Source: Candidatus Freyarchaeum deiterrae (GTDB taxonomy: Archaea; Asgardarchaeota; Jordiarchaeia; Jordiarchaeales; Jordiarchaeaceae). Taken from it: a DNA stretch of 64,000 nt. The translations under genes were made by a program, and so were the position numbers. Position 1 is the first letter of the stretch, and the number at the start of each line of letters is the position of its first letter. Location of the stretch: NCBI GenBank assembly GCA_037305845.1, contig CP147778.1, forward strand, positions 2,240,001 through 2,304,000, written 5' to 3'. Below, in pieces: positions 3,935 through 45,926 of the stretch. The notes beneath the pieces were generated by a model. It had not been told where the DNA came from, searched no databases, and worked only from the letters and a program-made list of their open reading frames with translations.

Positions 3935-4656
3935 TTGGCAAAAGATAATTTTTTGACAGAAAAGAAAAAACTTTTAGAGAACCTGAAGCGCACCGGCTTT
4001 GTTACCAGAGAAAACGTAATGCAAGCGTTCCTCAGAGTTCCCCGAGAAGAATTCGTGCCAGAGAACCTCAGAGACAAAGCTTACGTTGACCACCCCCTAC
4101 CAATTCCAGGCGGTCAAACAATATCTGCGCCACGCGAAAAAGCATATCCCTGCTTTTCGGGCGAAACATGTGCGTTCTAATGTGCGACGTACTAGAATTG
4201 GAAAAGGGCATGAAAGTACTAGAAGTAGGCGGAGGTTCAGGTTATCACGCAGCGCTATGCGCTGAGATAATAGCACCCACAGGTTCCAAAAGCGAGGGCC
4301 ATGTCTACACCATAGAACGAATACCCGCGCTAGTCGATTTTGCCAACGAAAATCTGAAAAAAACTGGATACATTGACAGAGTAACCATCTACACAGGAGA
4401 CGGCTCGGAGGGATTCCCCGATATGGCTCCCTATGACGCCATACTTGTGACAGCTGCAGCGCCCAAGGTGCCCCAACCACTCATTGACCAATTAGCCGTG
4501 GGAGGAAAATTAGCCATTCCTCTCGGGAGCCTTTTCATGTATCAGGAATTGATAGTAGTTGAAAAATTAGAGGGCGGTCAGACGAAGAGGCACAGGTTCG
4601 GTGGTGTGGCCTTCGTTCCGCTATTGGGTCGTTGGGGGTATCGTAATAGTTGGTAA
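3935..4656 (+). CDS. pcm: Protein-L-isoaspartate O-methyltransferase, spliced: join(3935..4133,4166..4656), 229 aa
   Basis: The N-half (VPREEFVP..AYVDHPLPI..GQTISAP) and C-half (VLEVGGGSGYHAA, GDGSEG, APYDAILVTAA, FVPL) are in different frames. Removing 4134-4165 yields GQTISAPHM. Confidence 0.92.
4134..4165 (+). other. 32-nt BHB intron in pcm mRNA
   Basis: Central helix CGCC(4128-31)/GGCG(4160-63), bulges AC|G and AA|A, intron stem CGAAAAAGCA/TGCTTTTCG, exon pairs TG/CA. Confidence 0.88.
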
Positions 4657-32180: not shown

Positions 32181-33248
32181 CTATCCGTATATACGGCTTA
32201 TTTCTCTTTTTCTAGTCTCTATGAATTCGATAAATTCTTCTAGTGAGGGATCCTCCTCAGCCTCTTCAGAAACTAATTCCGCCATACTGATTAATGAAGC
32301 TGCTACATGTGTACGAGCAGGCTCAGATTTTATTTCAGGCTTAATAAGCGATACTATTCTTTTTTCGAAGTCTTTTAACGTAAGAACCTTATCCACAAGT
32401 AACATAAAAGATTCTGTTATTCCCTTCTCTAATTCCTGTTTCTCATCCAATACTCCATTCGCTGCAAGATTTTTAAGCGCGGGGCTCACAATATCCCTCC
32501 TAAACCAATCAAAGAGTACACCCTTTTTACTGGAAGGTGGAAGAAAGCTTGAAACAGGGGAACTAATGGTTTTTGGTTCTTTCTTAGCGTATTCCGCCAC
32601 TTTATTAGTATTTAAAGTTTTAATAGTTTCCATCGCAGCTAGTATTAGAGAGGTCACCCCTAAAACAACTTCTCTCCTACTGTAGTGTTCTAACATTTTT
32701 TTAAGAGCCTGTGAAGTTTCTTCAAAAGAAACGCCCCCCGATATAAACGATTTAAAAAGCTCCAAAATCATACCTCTTGTCTCAAGAGCTTCACTAAAGC
32801 TAACACTATCCAGAGTTAAAATTCGATACGCCGAGTCTAAAACCTGTTTATCAAACCATCTCACCACTATATACTCCTCTGTTAACCTCTTCAGATCTTC
32901 TGGAACAAGTTTCTCCTCGGTATCTTCTAAAGCGCTACATAGTTGCGAGGCGAAGGTTTCAAAAACTGAAGATACGTAAGCACGTAGCGTTTCATCCAGT
33001 TTAAGCCTTGATAACATCTTATCGACGTTTTTTTGAAACTGGGATTTGGAACCTTTTCTTTCTAAGTAGTTTTTGAAATGTGGGAATATTTCATCCTTCA
33101 TTAGTTGGGATTCTTCAGGAGTCAGATTAGTTGTGATGTTGTCTAGAACACCGAAAACTACATAGTCAAAAAACTCTCTTAAAATTTTCAAATTTTTTTC
33201 CGAATCAAAAATGGCGACCATGGTTGGCTTCACCGGAGGGTCATTCAA
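32181..33248 (-). CDS. Hypothetical all-alpha protein with three ~100-aa internal repeats
   Basis: 355-aa ORF overlapping the upstream ATPase stop; recurring F/W..(V)L and F..F.......F...(V/L)..(M/L)L segments. Confidence 0.7.
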   Translation of the reverse strand: MNDPPVKPTMVAIFDSEKNLKILREFFDYVVFGVLDNITTNLTPEESQLMKDEIFPHFKNYLERKGSKSQFQKNVDKMLSRLKLDETLRAYVSSVFETFASQLCSALEDTEEKLVPEDLKRLTEEYIVVRWFDKQVLDSAYRILTLDSVSFSEALETRGMILELFKSFISGGVSFEETSQALKKMLEHYSRREVVLGVTSLILAAMETIKTLNTNKVAEYAKKEPKTISSPVSSFLPPSSKKGVLFDWFRRDIVSPALKNLAANGVLDEKQELEKGITESFMLLVDKVLTLKDFEKRIVSLIKPEIKSEPARTHVAASLISMAELVSEEAEEDPSLEEFIEFIETRKREISRIYG

Positions 33249-36200
33249 TTAGTGATCTTTGCAGCTGCTCAATTTTTTCAATGGTTTTTCTTTTTAGAAA
33301 AATGTATTCGTCCTCAGCCATCCTGCCTAATTCATAGTATTCCTGCAAACTCTTTAGATATTTGTTGAATTTCTGTATCTCCTTAATGCTTTTTTCCTGT
33401 TCTATCTGCTTGTTAGTTTTCTCCTCTATCTCTGGTGTTTCCGTTTTCATAACCACTGGTGCTTCTAAAGGTTCCTGAAGTTCTGGTTCAATGTTTTCCT
33501 CGGCTTTAATACTGGGTCTGGGTGGTGGAGTGGGTAATTCCGGAAGTTTTTCAACCTTGGCTTTCTCTAGTAACTGTTTGGGTTTCGGCTTCGGATGCTT
33601 TCGGGGTGCTATTTTTAAATTATTAACTACGCTTTTTAGTGATGAAATTATACCTGTTGCTTCGCTCCTTTGAGCTGATGTAGATAAAATAAGAATTACT
33701 GTACTATCCTCGGTTTCTACAACTCCTAATGAAACCCGCGATTTGTCCTTGGAGCCTAAAATCACCGGTACACCCTTTGCAGCGTTTATTTGAGGTTGCC
33801 ATCCATCTTCCTTTAATTTGCTATAAACATCACGGATAACTTCAACGCTATCCGCTTGTGACAATATTTTTTCGACGGCGGTTTCCATTTTTGGGACTGG
33901 ATACAAATGATTGTAGAATCCATAGTCCAAAACCCGTTTTATGTAATTAGCGGCTAAATCGTTTGATAAACCGAGTACTGGTGGAGAAGGAATTGTTATA
34001 TCTGGGGCTATTTCAACCACTTCTTCTTCTACTACTACCCCCTCCGGAGACTCTGTGGCTTCTGTTTCGGATACTTTTTCTATTTTCTCAGTGGTCTCCT
34101 CAATTTTTTCCGGAGTAACGATAGATTTCGATGGAGTTGATGCAAGTTCCTCAACCATTTTGGGAAGCGCTTCCCGACCGGAATGCTGACTTAGTCTCGG
34201 CCTGATTTTAACCACGAGGGCACGGCTACTAGTGATTGATTCGTCTGAAACAATCGTGGTTCCAATTGGAATATTACGCAGAAATCCTGAGTCCTTTATC
34301 TCCTCAGGAATCTCTTTAGGTGATCTCTTTGTAAAAGCAATAATGTCTGGTTCATATGACAAATAATGTGTTATCAGTATATCTATTTGAGATAAAACTC
34401 GATTGTCTGTAGCTGAGGGTTGCTGGGTTACCAGTACCAAGCCACAACCCGGTTTTCTTCCGAGCTTGGTAAACTCGATTAGGGGATCAGAGGCTGCGGT
34501 GACCCCTCTGGAAGGAACGAGTAAGTGTGCTTCATCAATCATCAACCAGGTCACTGGAATCTCCGCTTCAACTTTCTCATTTGATGCTTCTCTCAGTTGG
34601 GCGGCTTCCTCTGTTCTTGAAATCTGTAACCTCACCCTGAGAATTCTTCGCGCCAGTATGCCAATAACTAGAGCACGCAAGCTATCATCTAGATTGCTTA
34701 CATCTATAACAGATATTTGATTTGGAACTGCCAATTGCATTAAGCTGGTTCCTTTATCTGAGAAAATTCCCCACTGTTTTGCCGAAGAGAATCTCGCAAC
34801 AAACGCTCTTCGTGTATCGCGTCTAAACCCTTTATCTTCGGATATAATCTCCGAAGAAGTTTCAACACATTTAATTAAATCATCTATAGTGTAGATGTCT
34901 CCCTTACCCGTAATGTTTAACTCTTGGTCATCGGTCATAGCCTTGTAGCCGTTTTTAACTTTTTCAATAACCTGTTCAGTTAAAAGGCCTAACGTGCTAA
35001 ATCTATCTATACTAAAGGTATGACACCAATCATCGGCCGATAGCTCCGAGGGCTTTAACGAGAAGGCGGCGTCTTTCGTTTGTTCTGGAACTCTATCATA
35101 GAAGCCTATAGGGACAAAAACCTTTACGTTACTAAAACCCTTAGTTGTGAGTTCCCATTTTTCAAGTGTTTCTAACTCTCTTTTATCCCAATTGGGGTAC
35201 TTCATGCTCCAAAATATTCCCATAGGGTCAACAATAATCGTCGCAATTCCTAATTCTGACTCCGCCAACTCTTCTGCGATAACACCCATAGTATAAGATT
35301 TTCCAGATCCTCTATGACCGCTTATAAATATGACATGGGGAGTCACTCCATCTAAGAGAACTTTACAACCAAGTAAGCCGTTATCTTCACTCCTTTTCTC
35401 TCCCACGCGGCCAATGTACATTGTTCCTTTACAGCCTAATTTAGTCTGGGTCACTTTGCTTCTTCCCAAAATAACCGATTCACCTAAACTATCCATAAGT
35501 ACACTAATTGGAGTATCCACTATTGTTGGTGATTCAACACTAGTACCTTTTTCAAAGTTTATTATACCTGCTTCACCATTAATGTAGGCTAGTGCTCGCC
35601 ACAAATCTTTCAAATTGTTCGGATCAGTTTGTTCGGCTATATGCTTTCTAAGATTAGGCTGTTTAGGGTATCTATCAGCATCAAAACCTGACAAGTCCCA
35701 TAATAGAAAATCAACAGTTTCTTTATTTGAGAACCCATTGTAGGGTTTTACTGCATTCAAAGCTTTTTCCAGGTATTCCATCCTATCGGTGGCCATGAGC
35801 AGAAGGAGAAATACCTCAACGCGTTTATCAACATCAATTAGGCTTACTAGTTCAACCATCTTGTCAAGAAGTTTATCATCCGCGTTGTATCTGTAACCTT
35901 CGTACAGAATTTTTATAATTTGGAAGTCTGGTGATTCCTGAGTCGAAGCGTATCTGACAGCGGAATCCAGAGATTTTTGAATCTCCCCCTTTTCGGTTTC
36001 TTTTAATATGGTTCGGAAGGCGTGAACGATTGAAGCAGCAGCTTCGTTGTCAATTTCGCCAGAGTCCGAAATCCAAGCTCCAGAATCTGACTGAATAGAA
36101 ACCAGTTGTCCAACGAGGCTGTCCACTTGTTCTAGAAAAGTTTTGTTTCCAGTAACCCTATTTGCGATAATATAACAGTTTAAAAGGTAGGCTTTTTCTC

Positions 36201-36282
36201 TGGTGGTGACTGGTTTCGCCAGAGAGACTTTCTGTAACATGTCCACTAGTGATGAACATAAAGGTCTTCCCCTACTTAACAA
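33241..36282 (-). CDS. HerA/FtsK-superfamily (DUF87) ATPase with helical N-domain, Pro/Glu linkers and short C-terminal helical domain
   Basis: Walker A GHRGSGKS, IIVDPMG, Walker B LMIDEAH, GRKPG, VTQQPS; 1013 aa. Confidence 0.88.
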   Translation of the reverse strand: MLSRGRPLCSSLVDMLQKVSLAKPVTTREKAYLLNCYIIANRVTGNKTFLEQVDSLVGQLVSIQSDSGAWISDSGEIDNEAAASIVHAFRTILKETEKGEIQKSLDSAVRYASTQESPDFQIIKILYEGYRYNADDKLLDKMVELVSLIDVDKRVEVFLLLLMATDRMEYLEKALNAVKPYNGFSNKETVDFLLWDLSGFDADRYPKQPNLRKHIAEQTDPNNLKDLWRALAYINGEAGIINFEKGTSVESPTIVDTPISVLMDSLGESVILGRSKVTQTKLGCKGTMYIGRVGEKRSEDNGLLGCKVLLDGVTPHVIFISGHRGSGKSYTMGVIAEELAESELGIATIIVDPMGIFWSMKYPNWDKRELETLEKWELTTKGFSNVKVFVPIGFYDRVPEQTKDAAFSLKPSELSADDWCHTFSIDRFSTLGLLTEQVIEKVKNGYKAMTDDQELNITGKGDIYTIDDLIKCVETSSEIISEDKGFRRDTRRAFVARFSSAKQWGIFSDKGTSLMQLAVPNQISVIDVSNLDDSLRALVIGILARRILRVRLQISRTEEAAQLREASNEKVEAEIPVTWLMIDEAHLLVPSRGVTAASDPLIEFTKLGRKPGCGLVLVTQQPSATDNRVLSQIDILITHYLSYEPDIIAFTKRSPKEIPEEIKDSGFLRNIPIGTTIVSDESITSSRALVVKIRPRLSQHSGREALPKMVEELASTPSKSIVTPEKIEETTEKIEKVSETEATESPEGVVVEEEVVEIAPDITIPSPPVLGLSNDLAANYIKRVLDYGFYNHLYPVPKMETAVEKILSQADSVEVIRDVYSKLKEDGWQPQINAAKGVPVILGSKDKSRVSLGVVETEDSTVILILSTSAQRSEATGIISSLKSVVNNLKIAPRKHPKPKPKQLLEKAKVEKLPELPTPPPRPSIKAEENIEPELQEPLEAPVVMKTETPEIEEKTNKQIEQEKSIKEIQKFNKYLKSLQEYYELGRMAEDEYIFLKRKTIEKIEQLQRSLIE

Positions 36283-36331: not shown

Positions 36332-36946
36332 TTAAAGTTCTTCTTTCAATTTCTTAATATCTTTTTCCAGTTCTTCAACTTTTCCGCTAGGTGCTGACGG
36401 GAGCTTTACTCCGGTTTCGACACTTATTTCTTGGTCGATCTCAGAGATAGTAGCTGCGACTTCTTGAGATGTGACTTCTGTGCTAACTGTCATCTTCTCC
36501 ATTCCAGCCTCAAGAACATCTTGACGAACGTCGAATTCTTGCATAATGCTGTCTATTTCCTCAGCGTTTTTAGCAATGTCTTCTGGGAGCTTGACAGCTT
36601 CTTCGAGTCCCTTAAGGGCTTCTCTTACACCCGATATTGTGCTGGCGACGTCAGCTACGGATTCGCTCTGACGGAGTCTAATTACCATACCCTGAATTTT
36701 GAGGCGATAAGAATCTGTTGCTAAAGCCCACTTATTGTACCTTATATAATGTTCGGCGTACATTTTGGCTCCTTCGGCGTTTCCTCTAAGCCTATATTTC
36801 TTAGCATCTTCTCTGTTTTTTCTGGCTTCTCTCTCCAGCTGTTTTTTCTGGTATTCAAGGCGGCGAGTGAAAACATCAAGTTTGTAAACCACTTCTTTTA
36901 TCTTCGGTCCTCCCTTAAGCCAACTTGAGAATTTTCTAAGCGCCAT
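36332..36946 (-). CDS. ESCRT-III Vps2/24/46 (CdvB-like) subunit
   Basis: AKKY...GN.EGAKMYAE, basic N-half and acidic C-half, C-terminal LPSAP...ELEKDIKKLK (MIM-like). Confidence 0.83.
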   Translation of the reverse strand: MALRKFSSWLKGGPKIKEVVYKLDVFTRRLEYQKKQLEREARKNREDAKKYRLRGNAEGAKMYAEHYIRYNKWALATDSYRLKIQGMVIRLRQSESVADVASTISGVREALKGLEEAVKLPEDIAKNAEEIDSIMQEFDVRQDVLEAGMEKMTVSTEVTSQEVAATISEIDQEISVETGVKLPSAPSGKVEELEKDIKKLKEEL

Positions 36947-37078
36947 ACAAAACACCAATCCCTTTTTTGATATTTTTCTAATTCTTTATTTTACCTAATA
37001 GAAGATTCCAGATGGTAGCATATAATACTTTCTTAATGTGCATTCCTCTGTTTTAAAAAGCAGTGAAAATTAAGCCGT

Positions 37079-38819: not shown

Positions 38820-39129
38820 TTGCCGCAAAAACGTAAAAGTCGTGGAAGAGCCAAAGGAAGCGCTGGAAAGAAATCACTCGTCCAATGCTCCGGGTGTGGG
38901 GCCATGGTGCCTCGCGATGTCAATTTGCTCAATTGAGCAAGTACGCGATAAGGCTAAGCGTGTGACCCGATACACCACATTGGTTGATCCAATGATCGGT
39001 CGAGAATTAAGACAGCAGGGAGCATACATTCCAAGAACTAGAGAAATCAAGGTATACTGCATCAACTGTGCTGTTCACAGAAAATTGACTCGGGTAAGAC
39101 CAAAGGAAGATAGAAGAGACAGAAGATAA
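38820..39129 (+). CDS. rps26e: Ribosomal protein eS26, spliced: join(38820..38918,38950..39129), 92 aa
   Basis: Exon 1 MPQKRKSRGRAKG..VQCSGCGAMVPRD plus exon 2 KAKRVT...YCINCAVHRK..RVR give a complete eS26 with all four Zn cysteines. Confidence 0.93.
38919..38949 (+). other. 31-nt BHB intron in rps26e mRNA
   Basis: Exon helix GCCT/AGGC, central helix CGCG/CGCG, bulges AT|G and AT|A, internal palindrome TTGCTCAATTGAGCAA; in-frame TGA within the intron. Confidence 0.9.
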
Positions 39130-44598: not shown

Positions 44599-45926
44599 TT
44601 GCGCTTTTTTTCGGACTTGCACATACATAGCAAGTATAGTAGGGCCACCAGTGATAAAATGGATATTGAGAATTTGATAAAGCATGCCAAGGTTAAGGGA
44701 CTAAACCTGCTAAGTTCTGGAGACCTATCTCATCCAAAATGGTTATCCGAGTTGAAAAACAAACTGATAGAGATCGAGGATTCGGGATTTTTCAGGGCTG
44801 AGGGCGAAAATGATGTTTTCTTTGTTCTTTGCACCGAAGTGTCAACTGTCTTTAGACATGAAGGAACTTCAAAGAAGATTCATCATCTTTTGTTTGCTCC
44901 TAATTTCGAAGTAGCTGATAAAATGAACGAATTTTTAGCGAAATTCGGGAATCTGAAAGCAGACGGTAGACCAATGTTGAATATTACCCCCGCAGAACTC
45001 GTTGAGAATCTTATAAATATTGATGAAAGAATATTAATCGTTCCTGCACATTTATGGACCAGTTGGTTTGGTGCATTAGGTGAAAATGGTTTCGACAGTT
45101 TAGAAGACTGTTACGAAGATCAGCTAAAGCACATCTACTCTGTGGAAACAGGTTTATCCTCTGACCCGGCTATGAACTGGAGACTGAGCAAATTGGACAA
45201 ATACGTTTTAATGAGTAACAGCGACGCTCACAGCCCATGGGATTGGAGGCTTGGTAGGGAAGCAAACGTTTACGAACTAAAATCTCCATCCTACCGAGAA
45301 TTAACCGAGGCTATAAAAACAAAAGACAGGGAAAAAATTCTTATGACCATCGAAGTTGACCCCGCCTATGGAAACTAATTCGAAGTGAGTCCGAGTTAGC
45401 CATAAAATATCACTTCGATGGTCACCGCGCAGATAAACATCAAAGCGGTACGGACGTATACATGTCTCCAAAAGAGGCTATTAAAATAAGTAACATTTGT
45501 CCAATCTGTAGAAAGAAAATGACTATCGGAGTGCTACACAGAGTAGAAGAATTAGCTGATCGAGATGAAAATTATTTACCCAAAAATTATGTACCCTTCA
45601 AAAGATTAATTCCTTTGACAGAACTCATTGCGGCTGCTATGAGGATTGATGACTTGTACTCTAAGCAGATTTGGGAGATGTACTACCGACTTGTGAATTC
45701 TTTCGGTAACGAGTACAATATTTTAATTAATGTTCCCAAACCCGATATTGAGGCGGTGGTGGATCAGAAAATTGCTGATTTAATTATCAATAACCGAGAA
45801 GGAAGACTAAAGATTAGACCAGGTTTCGATGGGGTGTATGGAAAAGTTGTTTTAGACGAAAAAGAAGCTAAAGGTAAAGGCTTTAAACAGCTGGAGCAGA
45901 AAAGTCTGGATGGATATTTTAAATAA
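44599..45926 (+). CDS. endoQ: EndoQ-family PHP-domain endonuclease, spliced: join(44599..45373,45406..45926), 431 aa
   Basis: DLHIHSKYSRATS, PAHLWT.WF, ETGLSSDP, SNSDAHSP, GREAN; restored PAYGKYHFDGHR; CPIC..GVLHRVEELADR, PGFDGVYG, PIP-like QKSLDGYF. Confidence 0.9.
45374..45405 (+). other. 32-nt BHB/BHL intron in endoQ mRNA
   Basis: Central helix ATGG(45368-71)/CCAT(45400-03), bulges AA|A and AA|A, intron stem CTAATTCG/CGAGTTAG; in-frame TAA within the intron. Confidence 0.86.

Follow-up and report, generated by a model that had tools for sequence, protein, structure and literature searches.

A candidate bulge-helix-bulge intron in the ribosomal protein gene rps26e of the Asgard archaeon Candidatus Freyarchaeum deiterrae

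The window analysed here, a stretch of 64,000 nucleotides (nt) of the genome of Candidatus Freyarchaeum deiterrae (assembly GCA_037305845.1, contig CP147778.1, positions 2,240,001 to 2,304,000), contains rps26e, the gene for ribosomal protein eS26, interrupted by an insert of 31 nt. Across the gene the list of open reading frames (ORFs) holds only a chimeric ORF of 95 amino acids (aa; 38842-39129), as the original prediction, made from the letters of the window, had stated, and its account of the parts agrees with the sequence as well: exon 1 ends in VPRD, the unspliced frame runs into a TGA inside the insert, and exon 2 begins with KAK (Table 1). Both PF01283 and PRK09335 identify the protein as eS26, and its closest intact relative matches solved eS26 chains. 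The PRK09335 profile (NCBIfam) is covered at positions 1-33 by exon 1 and at positions 34-91 by exon 2, with neither gap nor overlap, and the four zinc-binding cysteines (C23, C26, C70 and C73) would all be retained in the spliced protein, so that the exons are indeed intact with every ligand in place. The gene is also present in a single copy, a point singled out beforehand for checking: neither tblastn nor PF01283 finds a second rps26e in the closed genome of 3,576,204 bases. Since eS26 is detected in 364 of 400 Asgard genomes, the gene can be expected to be needed. The public gene call at the locus, a 70-aa protein, is probably a mis-call.

When the RNA around the insert is folded, the prediction shows the motif known as bulge-helix-bulge (BHB). 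Four Watson-Crick pairs form a central helix (predicted pair probabilities 0.84-0.90) flanked by two 3-nt bulges on opposite strands with helices beyond them, in a form that is relaxed on the intron side: the 3' bulge is closed by an exon helix of four base pairs (bp), GCCU/AGGC (three pairs at 0.99, the innermost at 0.42), whereas the 5' bulge is followed by a single pair, a 2-nt bulge and only then the 8-bp inner hairpin. Both 4-bp helices had been drawn in the original prediction (GCCT/AGGC in DNA letters), and sequence and pair probabilities bear them out. The BHB form is predicted to lie only 0.3 kcal/mol above the minimum-energy fold, the 96-nt region around the insert has a folding z-score of -2.2, and BHB geometry together with a hairpin was obtained at random 28-33-nt sites in 4 of 400,000 trials. 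In DNA, a 6-nt direct repeat, CGCGAT, allows the junction to slide over seven registers; the register is fixed because the BHB rule (PMC2738675) picks only one of the seven, and excision at that register would yield a 92-aa eS26 in which profile positions 33 and 34 abut. On the level of sequence, the candidate intron has every feature by which a BHB intron is recognised.

Compared with five congeners, the insert is an exact addition of 31 nt, and the alignment becomes gap-free once it is removed. The gene is uninterrupted in all five, in every other genome with a match among the first 61, in 80 metagenomic loci and in the closest protein relative (P0002). Since the congeners are free of the insert, its gain on the branch leading to this species must be recent. 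The empty site, the same in several intron-less congeners, folds into a small hairpin (3-bp stem, 7-nt loop); such a stem was rejected as a universal feature, being found at 19% of 115 homologous sites and similarly often at several neighbouring offsets. A search for a donor among 60 transfer RNA (tRNA) introns of the genome gave a best local score of 18 against a null mean of 18.7, and no second copy of the element was found in the genome or in the genome contigs searched. Nor does it resemble a miniature inverted-repeat transposable element or other transposon, as the ends of its 25-nt core are not inverted repeats and no second copy exists there.

The genome encodes what splicing of such an intron would require. 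There are two EndA genes (PF01974; genome regions 1921033-1921278 and 1733162-1733422), both free of stops. Judged by established motifs, one of them shows Tyr, His and Lys as a catalytic subunit does, and the second is without the His, a pair that fits the two-subunit type accepting relaxed motifs. RtcB is encoded as well, and rtcB itself carries a 29-nt insert, within its PD^AHQG motif, that shows three of the four helix pairs. Introns have been reported in 92-95% of tRNA genes (PMC11291895), and the tRNA coordinates obtained here agree with Supplementary Data 4 of that paper for the curated Freyarchaeia genome. Of 60 tRNA introns parsed from the set published for this genome, whose median length is 28 nt, 42 have the full 4-bp helix. 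As a side observation, ARAGORN reports only 17 tRNA genes genome-wide, several of them mis-called, and none in the window, where the published table places a tRNA-Lys at 2144-2267; the shortfall arises because multi-intron tRNAs defeat the program.

Similar inserts occur in other protein genes of the lineage. In a census that made no use of the motif, about 1,340 orthologues were compared with 2.09 Mb of congener DNA, and well-aligned, frame-breaking inserts of 20-60 nt were collected. Found in this genome only were those of nadE (33 nt), rps26e (31 nt) and a gene without a Pfam match (31 nt), and found in the congener G003 only were those of eL42 (33 nt), an ArsA-family ATPase (29 nt), a roadblock protein (31 nt) and a ferredoxin-like gene (30 nt). 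All seven of these species-specific inserts have a central helix in BHB register, for which the joint chance is about 3e-9 (background 0.022 per site, equivalent registers allowed for), a figure that applies to a set whose junction-quality cut was chosen after looking; the set omits cases with weak alignment, a single tandem duplication and a single antisense match to a tRNA gene. At the other, sister inserts in the genome the junction repeats are only 0-4 nt long and the junctions often fall within a codon, and the full BHB helix is present in all but rtcB. Where an insert is shared between species, its length may change and its junction does not: the EndoQ-like gene has inserts of 32, 28 and 28 nt across species, and the gene for a pyruvate:ferredoxin oxidoreductase-family alpha subunit has inserts of 28 and 33 nt. 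Length changes by non-multiples of three with the junction kept are what one would expect if the inserts are removed from the RNA. We also observed that the recently gained inserts fall in a narrow range of 29-33 nt and mostly end in AA, which may reflect the process that makes them or a size preference of EndA.

A second intron in the same gene was found in Promethearchaeota. Among the 400 Asgard genomes screened, three genomes of one distant genus have a 29-nt insert that falls inside the R32 codon and lies 4 nt upstream of the insert described above; the clade with this intron is widespread, as more than 20 chimeric rps26e gene calls indicate. Its central helix (UGCA/UGUA) is conserved and its inner hairpin varies, and differences in the exons are mostly synonymous (e.g. 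13:1 and 25:4); judged by these counts, the exons remain under purifying selection. In the eS26 tree a fully supported branch splits the two intron groups, which are joined in no bootstrap tree, and by the tree the 29-nt intron is an independent gain. Other candidates were set aside. Promethearchaeota proteins that lack the intron and are close to the 29-nt form once spliced come from contigs that could not be shown to be RNA, the short eS26 proteins P0043, P0046, P0050 and P0062 are mis-called starts of intact genes, and the split rps26e of G339 (L266) is due to one extra base, probably a sequencing error.

We conclude that the rps26e insert is very probably (we would say about 90%) a pre-mRNA intron spliced by EndA and RtcB. 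The transcript would fold locally into the BHB, the two-subunit EndA would cut each 3-nt bulge behind its second base, and RtcB would ligate the exons into a PRD^KAK junction, both steps following the established mechanism, and the spliced message would then be translated into a normal 92-aa eS26. The intron was gained recently, at a site that in several intron-less congeners already forms the small stem with a 7-nt loop, and belongs to a series of BHB introns, 28-39 nt long, which repeatedly enter protein genes of this tRNA-intron-rich lineage. It also seems probable, though less so, that the gain of tRNA-type introns in essential protein genes, ribosomal ones included, is routine in more than one class of Asgard archaea, and that these archaea splice them by EndA and RtcB. 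The suggestion that splicing might support autoregulation finds no support, as the intron is confined to this species and many others like it sit in genes unrelated to rps26e; tolerance is the better fit for a recent gain with so many unrelated hosts, and most likely the intron is tolerated because it is spliced, rather than maintained for regulation.

Several observations weigh against this conclusion. Because CGCG is self-complementary and coincides with the direct repeat, duplication of the palindrome produces the central helix automatically, and the helix is therefore weaker evidence at this insert than elsewhere; the exon helix and the other inserts are free of this objection. A motif-first scan for introns shared with the congener was, in its tight form, no better than decoys (12 sites versus 7-14), and its looser forms were too permissive. 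We therefore give no genome-wide intron count, and used from the scan only individual cases whose junction falls within a motif that can be recognised. The protein homologue search contained no full-length eS26 from this species, only two mis-called forms, although for so rare an organism the absence of such a record says little. Finally, the intactness of the exons had been taken as a strong argument against a pseudogene. The exons are intact, and most of the codons in which they differ from the closest relative are synonymous (nine synonymous versus four replacement in exon 1, 19 versus seven in exon 2), but there is little time for decay after a recent gain, and intact exons are thus also compatible with a recent loss of function.

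One may accordingly consider that rps26e is a recent pseudogene, hit by a hairpin element that made a 6-bp target-site duplication, with the BHB a mere by-product of the duplicated palindrome. The perfect CGCGAT repeat around a 25-nt hairpin and the restriction of the insert to one species are what this explanation would predict. Nevertheless, we consider it improbable: the species has no second rps26e in a phylum that retains eS26 almost universally, the exon-exon helix does not depend on the duplication, a further copy of the element turned up neither in the genome nor in the genome contigs, and nadE, rtcB, a candidate gatE and eL42 have inserts of this kind that lack such a repeat. Target-site duplication was also rejected as a general birth mark of these inserts, since the 6-nt repeat is confined to eS26 and the other eight have 0-4 nt; it may still account for the origin of this intron without the gene being dead.

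Translational recoding, either by bypass from one GAT to another 31 nt further on, in the manner of gene 60 or byp, or by a frameshift within the insert, is somewhat less probable still. The 6-nt repeat supplies matched take-off and landing codons (GAT...GAT) around a strong hairpin. However, in bypass elements such as gene 60 and byp the take-off codon is followed at once by a stop or an unused codon, whereas here the next codon is GTC and the stop comes five codons later, and a frameshift would add about 10 residues to a motif in which none of about 115 homologous loci has an insertion. The sister inserts, with their short repeats and often split codons, offer no such matched codons, yet have the full BHB helix, except that of rtcB.

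There is very little to recommend a split protein, in which the 38-aa N-terminal piece and the 70-aa ORF would assemble around zinc. The ATG at the junction does open the exon-2 frame, in line with the public gene call, but the PRD-KAK motif would be broken with junk residues at both ends, the BHB would be left unexplained, and the exon-2 frame of two Promethearchaeota genomes meets a stop within the intron and lacks a start at its 5' end. An assembly artefact, of the kind that a hairpin with a direct repeat can cause in libraries or assemblies, can be dismissed, since a Logan contig of SRR15677223, an independent assembly, matches the window over 3,288 nt with 0 differences, insert included, and the Freyarchaeia genome is curated, circular (3.58 Mbp) and of a topology checked by long reads (PMC11291895). 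What stands of the claim that eS26 can only be made by removing the intron is thus its core, namely a real insert in a single-copy gene, a BHB excision that restores the family alignment, the machinery and the recurrence of such inserts; the exclusivity is not strictly established, with recoding and a split protein as formal alternatives.

Table 1. Features of the rps26e locus and BHB-type inserts in other genes and genomes (positions are those of the window unless a genome or contig is named)
Feature	Position	Strand	Remarks
rps26e exon 1	38820..38918	+	TTG start, 33 codons, CxxC at C23/C26, ends VPRD
31-nt BHB-type intron candidate	38919..38949	+	phase 0, between D33 and K34, frame-shifting
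rps26e exon 2	38950..39129	+	starts KAK, C70/C73, 59 codons + TAA
Premature TGA of the unspliced frame	38934..38936	+	inside insert; product 38 aa
70-aa ORF from ATG at junction	38917..39129	+	public gene call (P0001)
Exon-exon helix GCCU, 5' strand	38909..38912	+	pairs with AGGC 38951-38954; sequence, pair probabilities
Central helix, exon strand CGCG, 4 bp	38913..38916	+	pairs with intron CGCG 38944-38947
5' bulge AU^G	38917..38919	+	predicted cut 38918/38919 (BHB rule, PMC2738675)
Inner hairpin, 8 bp	38923..38942	+	holds 16-nt palindrome 38925-38940; predicted inner fold -9.3 kcal/mol
3' bulge AU^A	38948..38950	+	predicted cut 38949/38950 (BHB rule)
pcm, 32-nt BHB insert (ISAP^HM)	4134..4165	+	within the same window
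TIGR00375-family (EndoQ-like) gene, 32-nt BHB insert	45374..45405	+	28 nt in two congeners, same site
nadE (NAD synthetase), 33-nt BHB insert	genome C1:1619887	+	in-frame stop; not in G003
Gene without Pfam match, 31-nt BHB insert	genome C1:2434719	-	not in G003
HdrC-like 4Fe-4S protein, insert 39/30 nt	genome C1:1152345	+	common to G003
Oxidoreductase alpha subunit, insert 28/33 nt	genome C1:1589381	-	common to G003
Candidate gatE, insert 30/30 nt	genome C1:1472189	-	common to G003
rtcB, 29-nt BHB-type insert	genome C1:1452824	-	3/4 helix pairs
eL42 (L44e), 33-nt BHB insert	G003 L081:8859-8891		Pfam 1-36 and 38-76; not in this genome
ArsA-family P-loop, roadblock and ferredoxin-like genes, 29-31-nt BHB inserts	G003 L120, L044, L085		not in this genome
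Promethearchaeota rps26e, 29-nt BHB intron	L267, L269, L273, L278-L280		G202, G196, G199 and metagenome contigs

Elsewhere in the window, a gene that by the appearance of its sequence is ESCRT-III-like (36332-36958) adjoins one for a HerA-like ATPase of 1013 aa (33241-36282).

If such gains and their splicing are indeed routine in more than one Asgard class, a general and still-spreading form of non-spliceosomal mRNA splicing would exist in the closest prokaryotic relatives of eukaryotes, with the R32-K34 region of rps26e hit twice independently. The species-specific gains, together with the gain in a different class that lies only 4 nt off, would provide before-and-after pairs for the birth of BHB introns. 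In practical terms, Asgard genes are mis-annotated at such sites, as with the 70-aa rps26e fragment and the chimeric Promethearchaeota calls, and could be scored as missing or broken. Since the gene is short, essential and ribosomal, in an Asgard genome that is closed and for which wetland-soil metatranscriptomes have been deposited (BioProject PRJNA1050611), wider mRNA splicing in archaea becomes directly testable.

Among known systems, the mRNAs of XBP1 and HAC1 also lose a short intron that shifts the frame, through a protein nuclease together with a tRNA ligase; there, in contrast to the rps26e insert, IRE1 cuts two separate stem-loops, the reaction is stress-regulated and no BHB is involved. 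Human rpS26, a member of the same protein family, likewise has an intron in its own gene, although a spliceosomal one, and its autoregulation by splicing in vitro is cited in PMC2095825. Known archaeal mRNA substrates are listed as cbf5 and one case in a 5' untranslated region (UTR; PMC7714728). The latter, the HVO_1309 intron of Haloferax volcanii (PMC7714728), resembles what we infer for rps26e in that the EndA substrate is an mRNA, but it sits in the 5'-UTR and breaks no frame. The non-canonical tRNA introns of Freyarchaeia and Atabeyarchaeia (PMC11291895; bioRxiv 10.64898/2026.10.13.758758) share with the rps26e insert the genome, the size class (median 28 nt), the BHB geometry, the repeated gains on terminal branches and the lack of an identifiable donor, and differ in that their host is a tRNA gene rather than an mRNA; a term search of these two papers returns no mention of mRNA introns. 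Nor did a literature search, which most subscription journals lie outside of, turn up Asgard mRNA introns of this type. The nearest relative is the BHB intron of the cbf5 pre-mRNA, known from Desulfurococcales and Sulfolobales and 16-44 nt long (PMC2738675, citing Watanabe 2002 and Yoshinari 2006), the only archaeal gene for which splicing within coding sequence is documented (PMC2738675, PMC7714728). As in cbf5, a short intron lies in a conserved coding motif with a BHB-like junction and a predicted cut between bulge bases 2 and 3, in a host with a two-subunit EndA. Unlike that of cbf5, a single gene with a single, old insertion and proof from complementary DNA, the rps26e intron is recent, specific to a species, one of many and known from DNA. 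Thus, the chemistry is a known one, and what is new is the class of host gene, the lineage and the ongoing gain.
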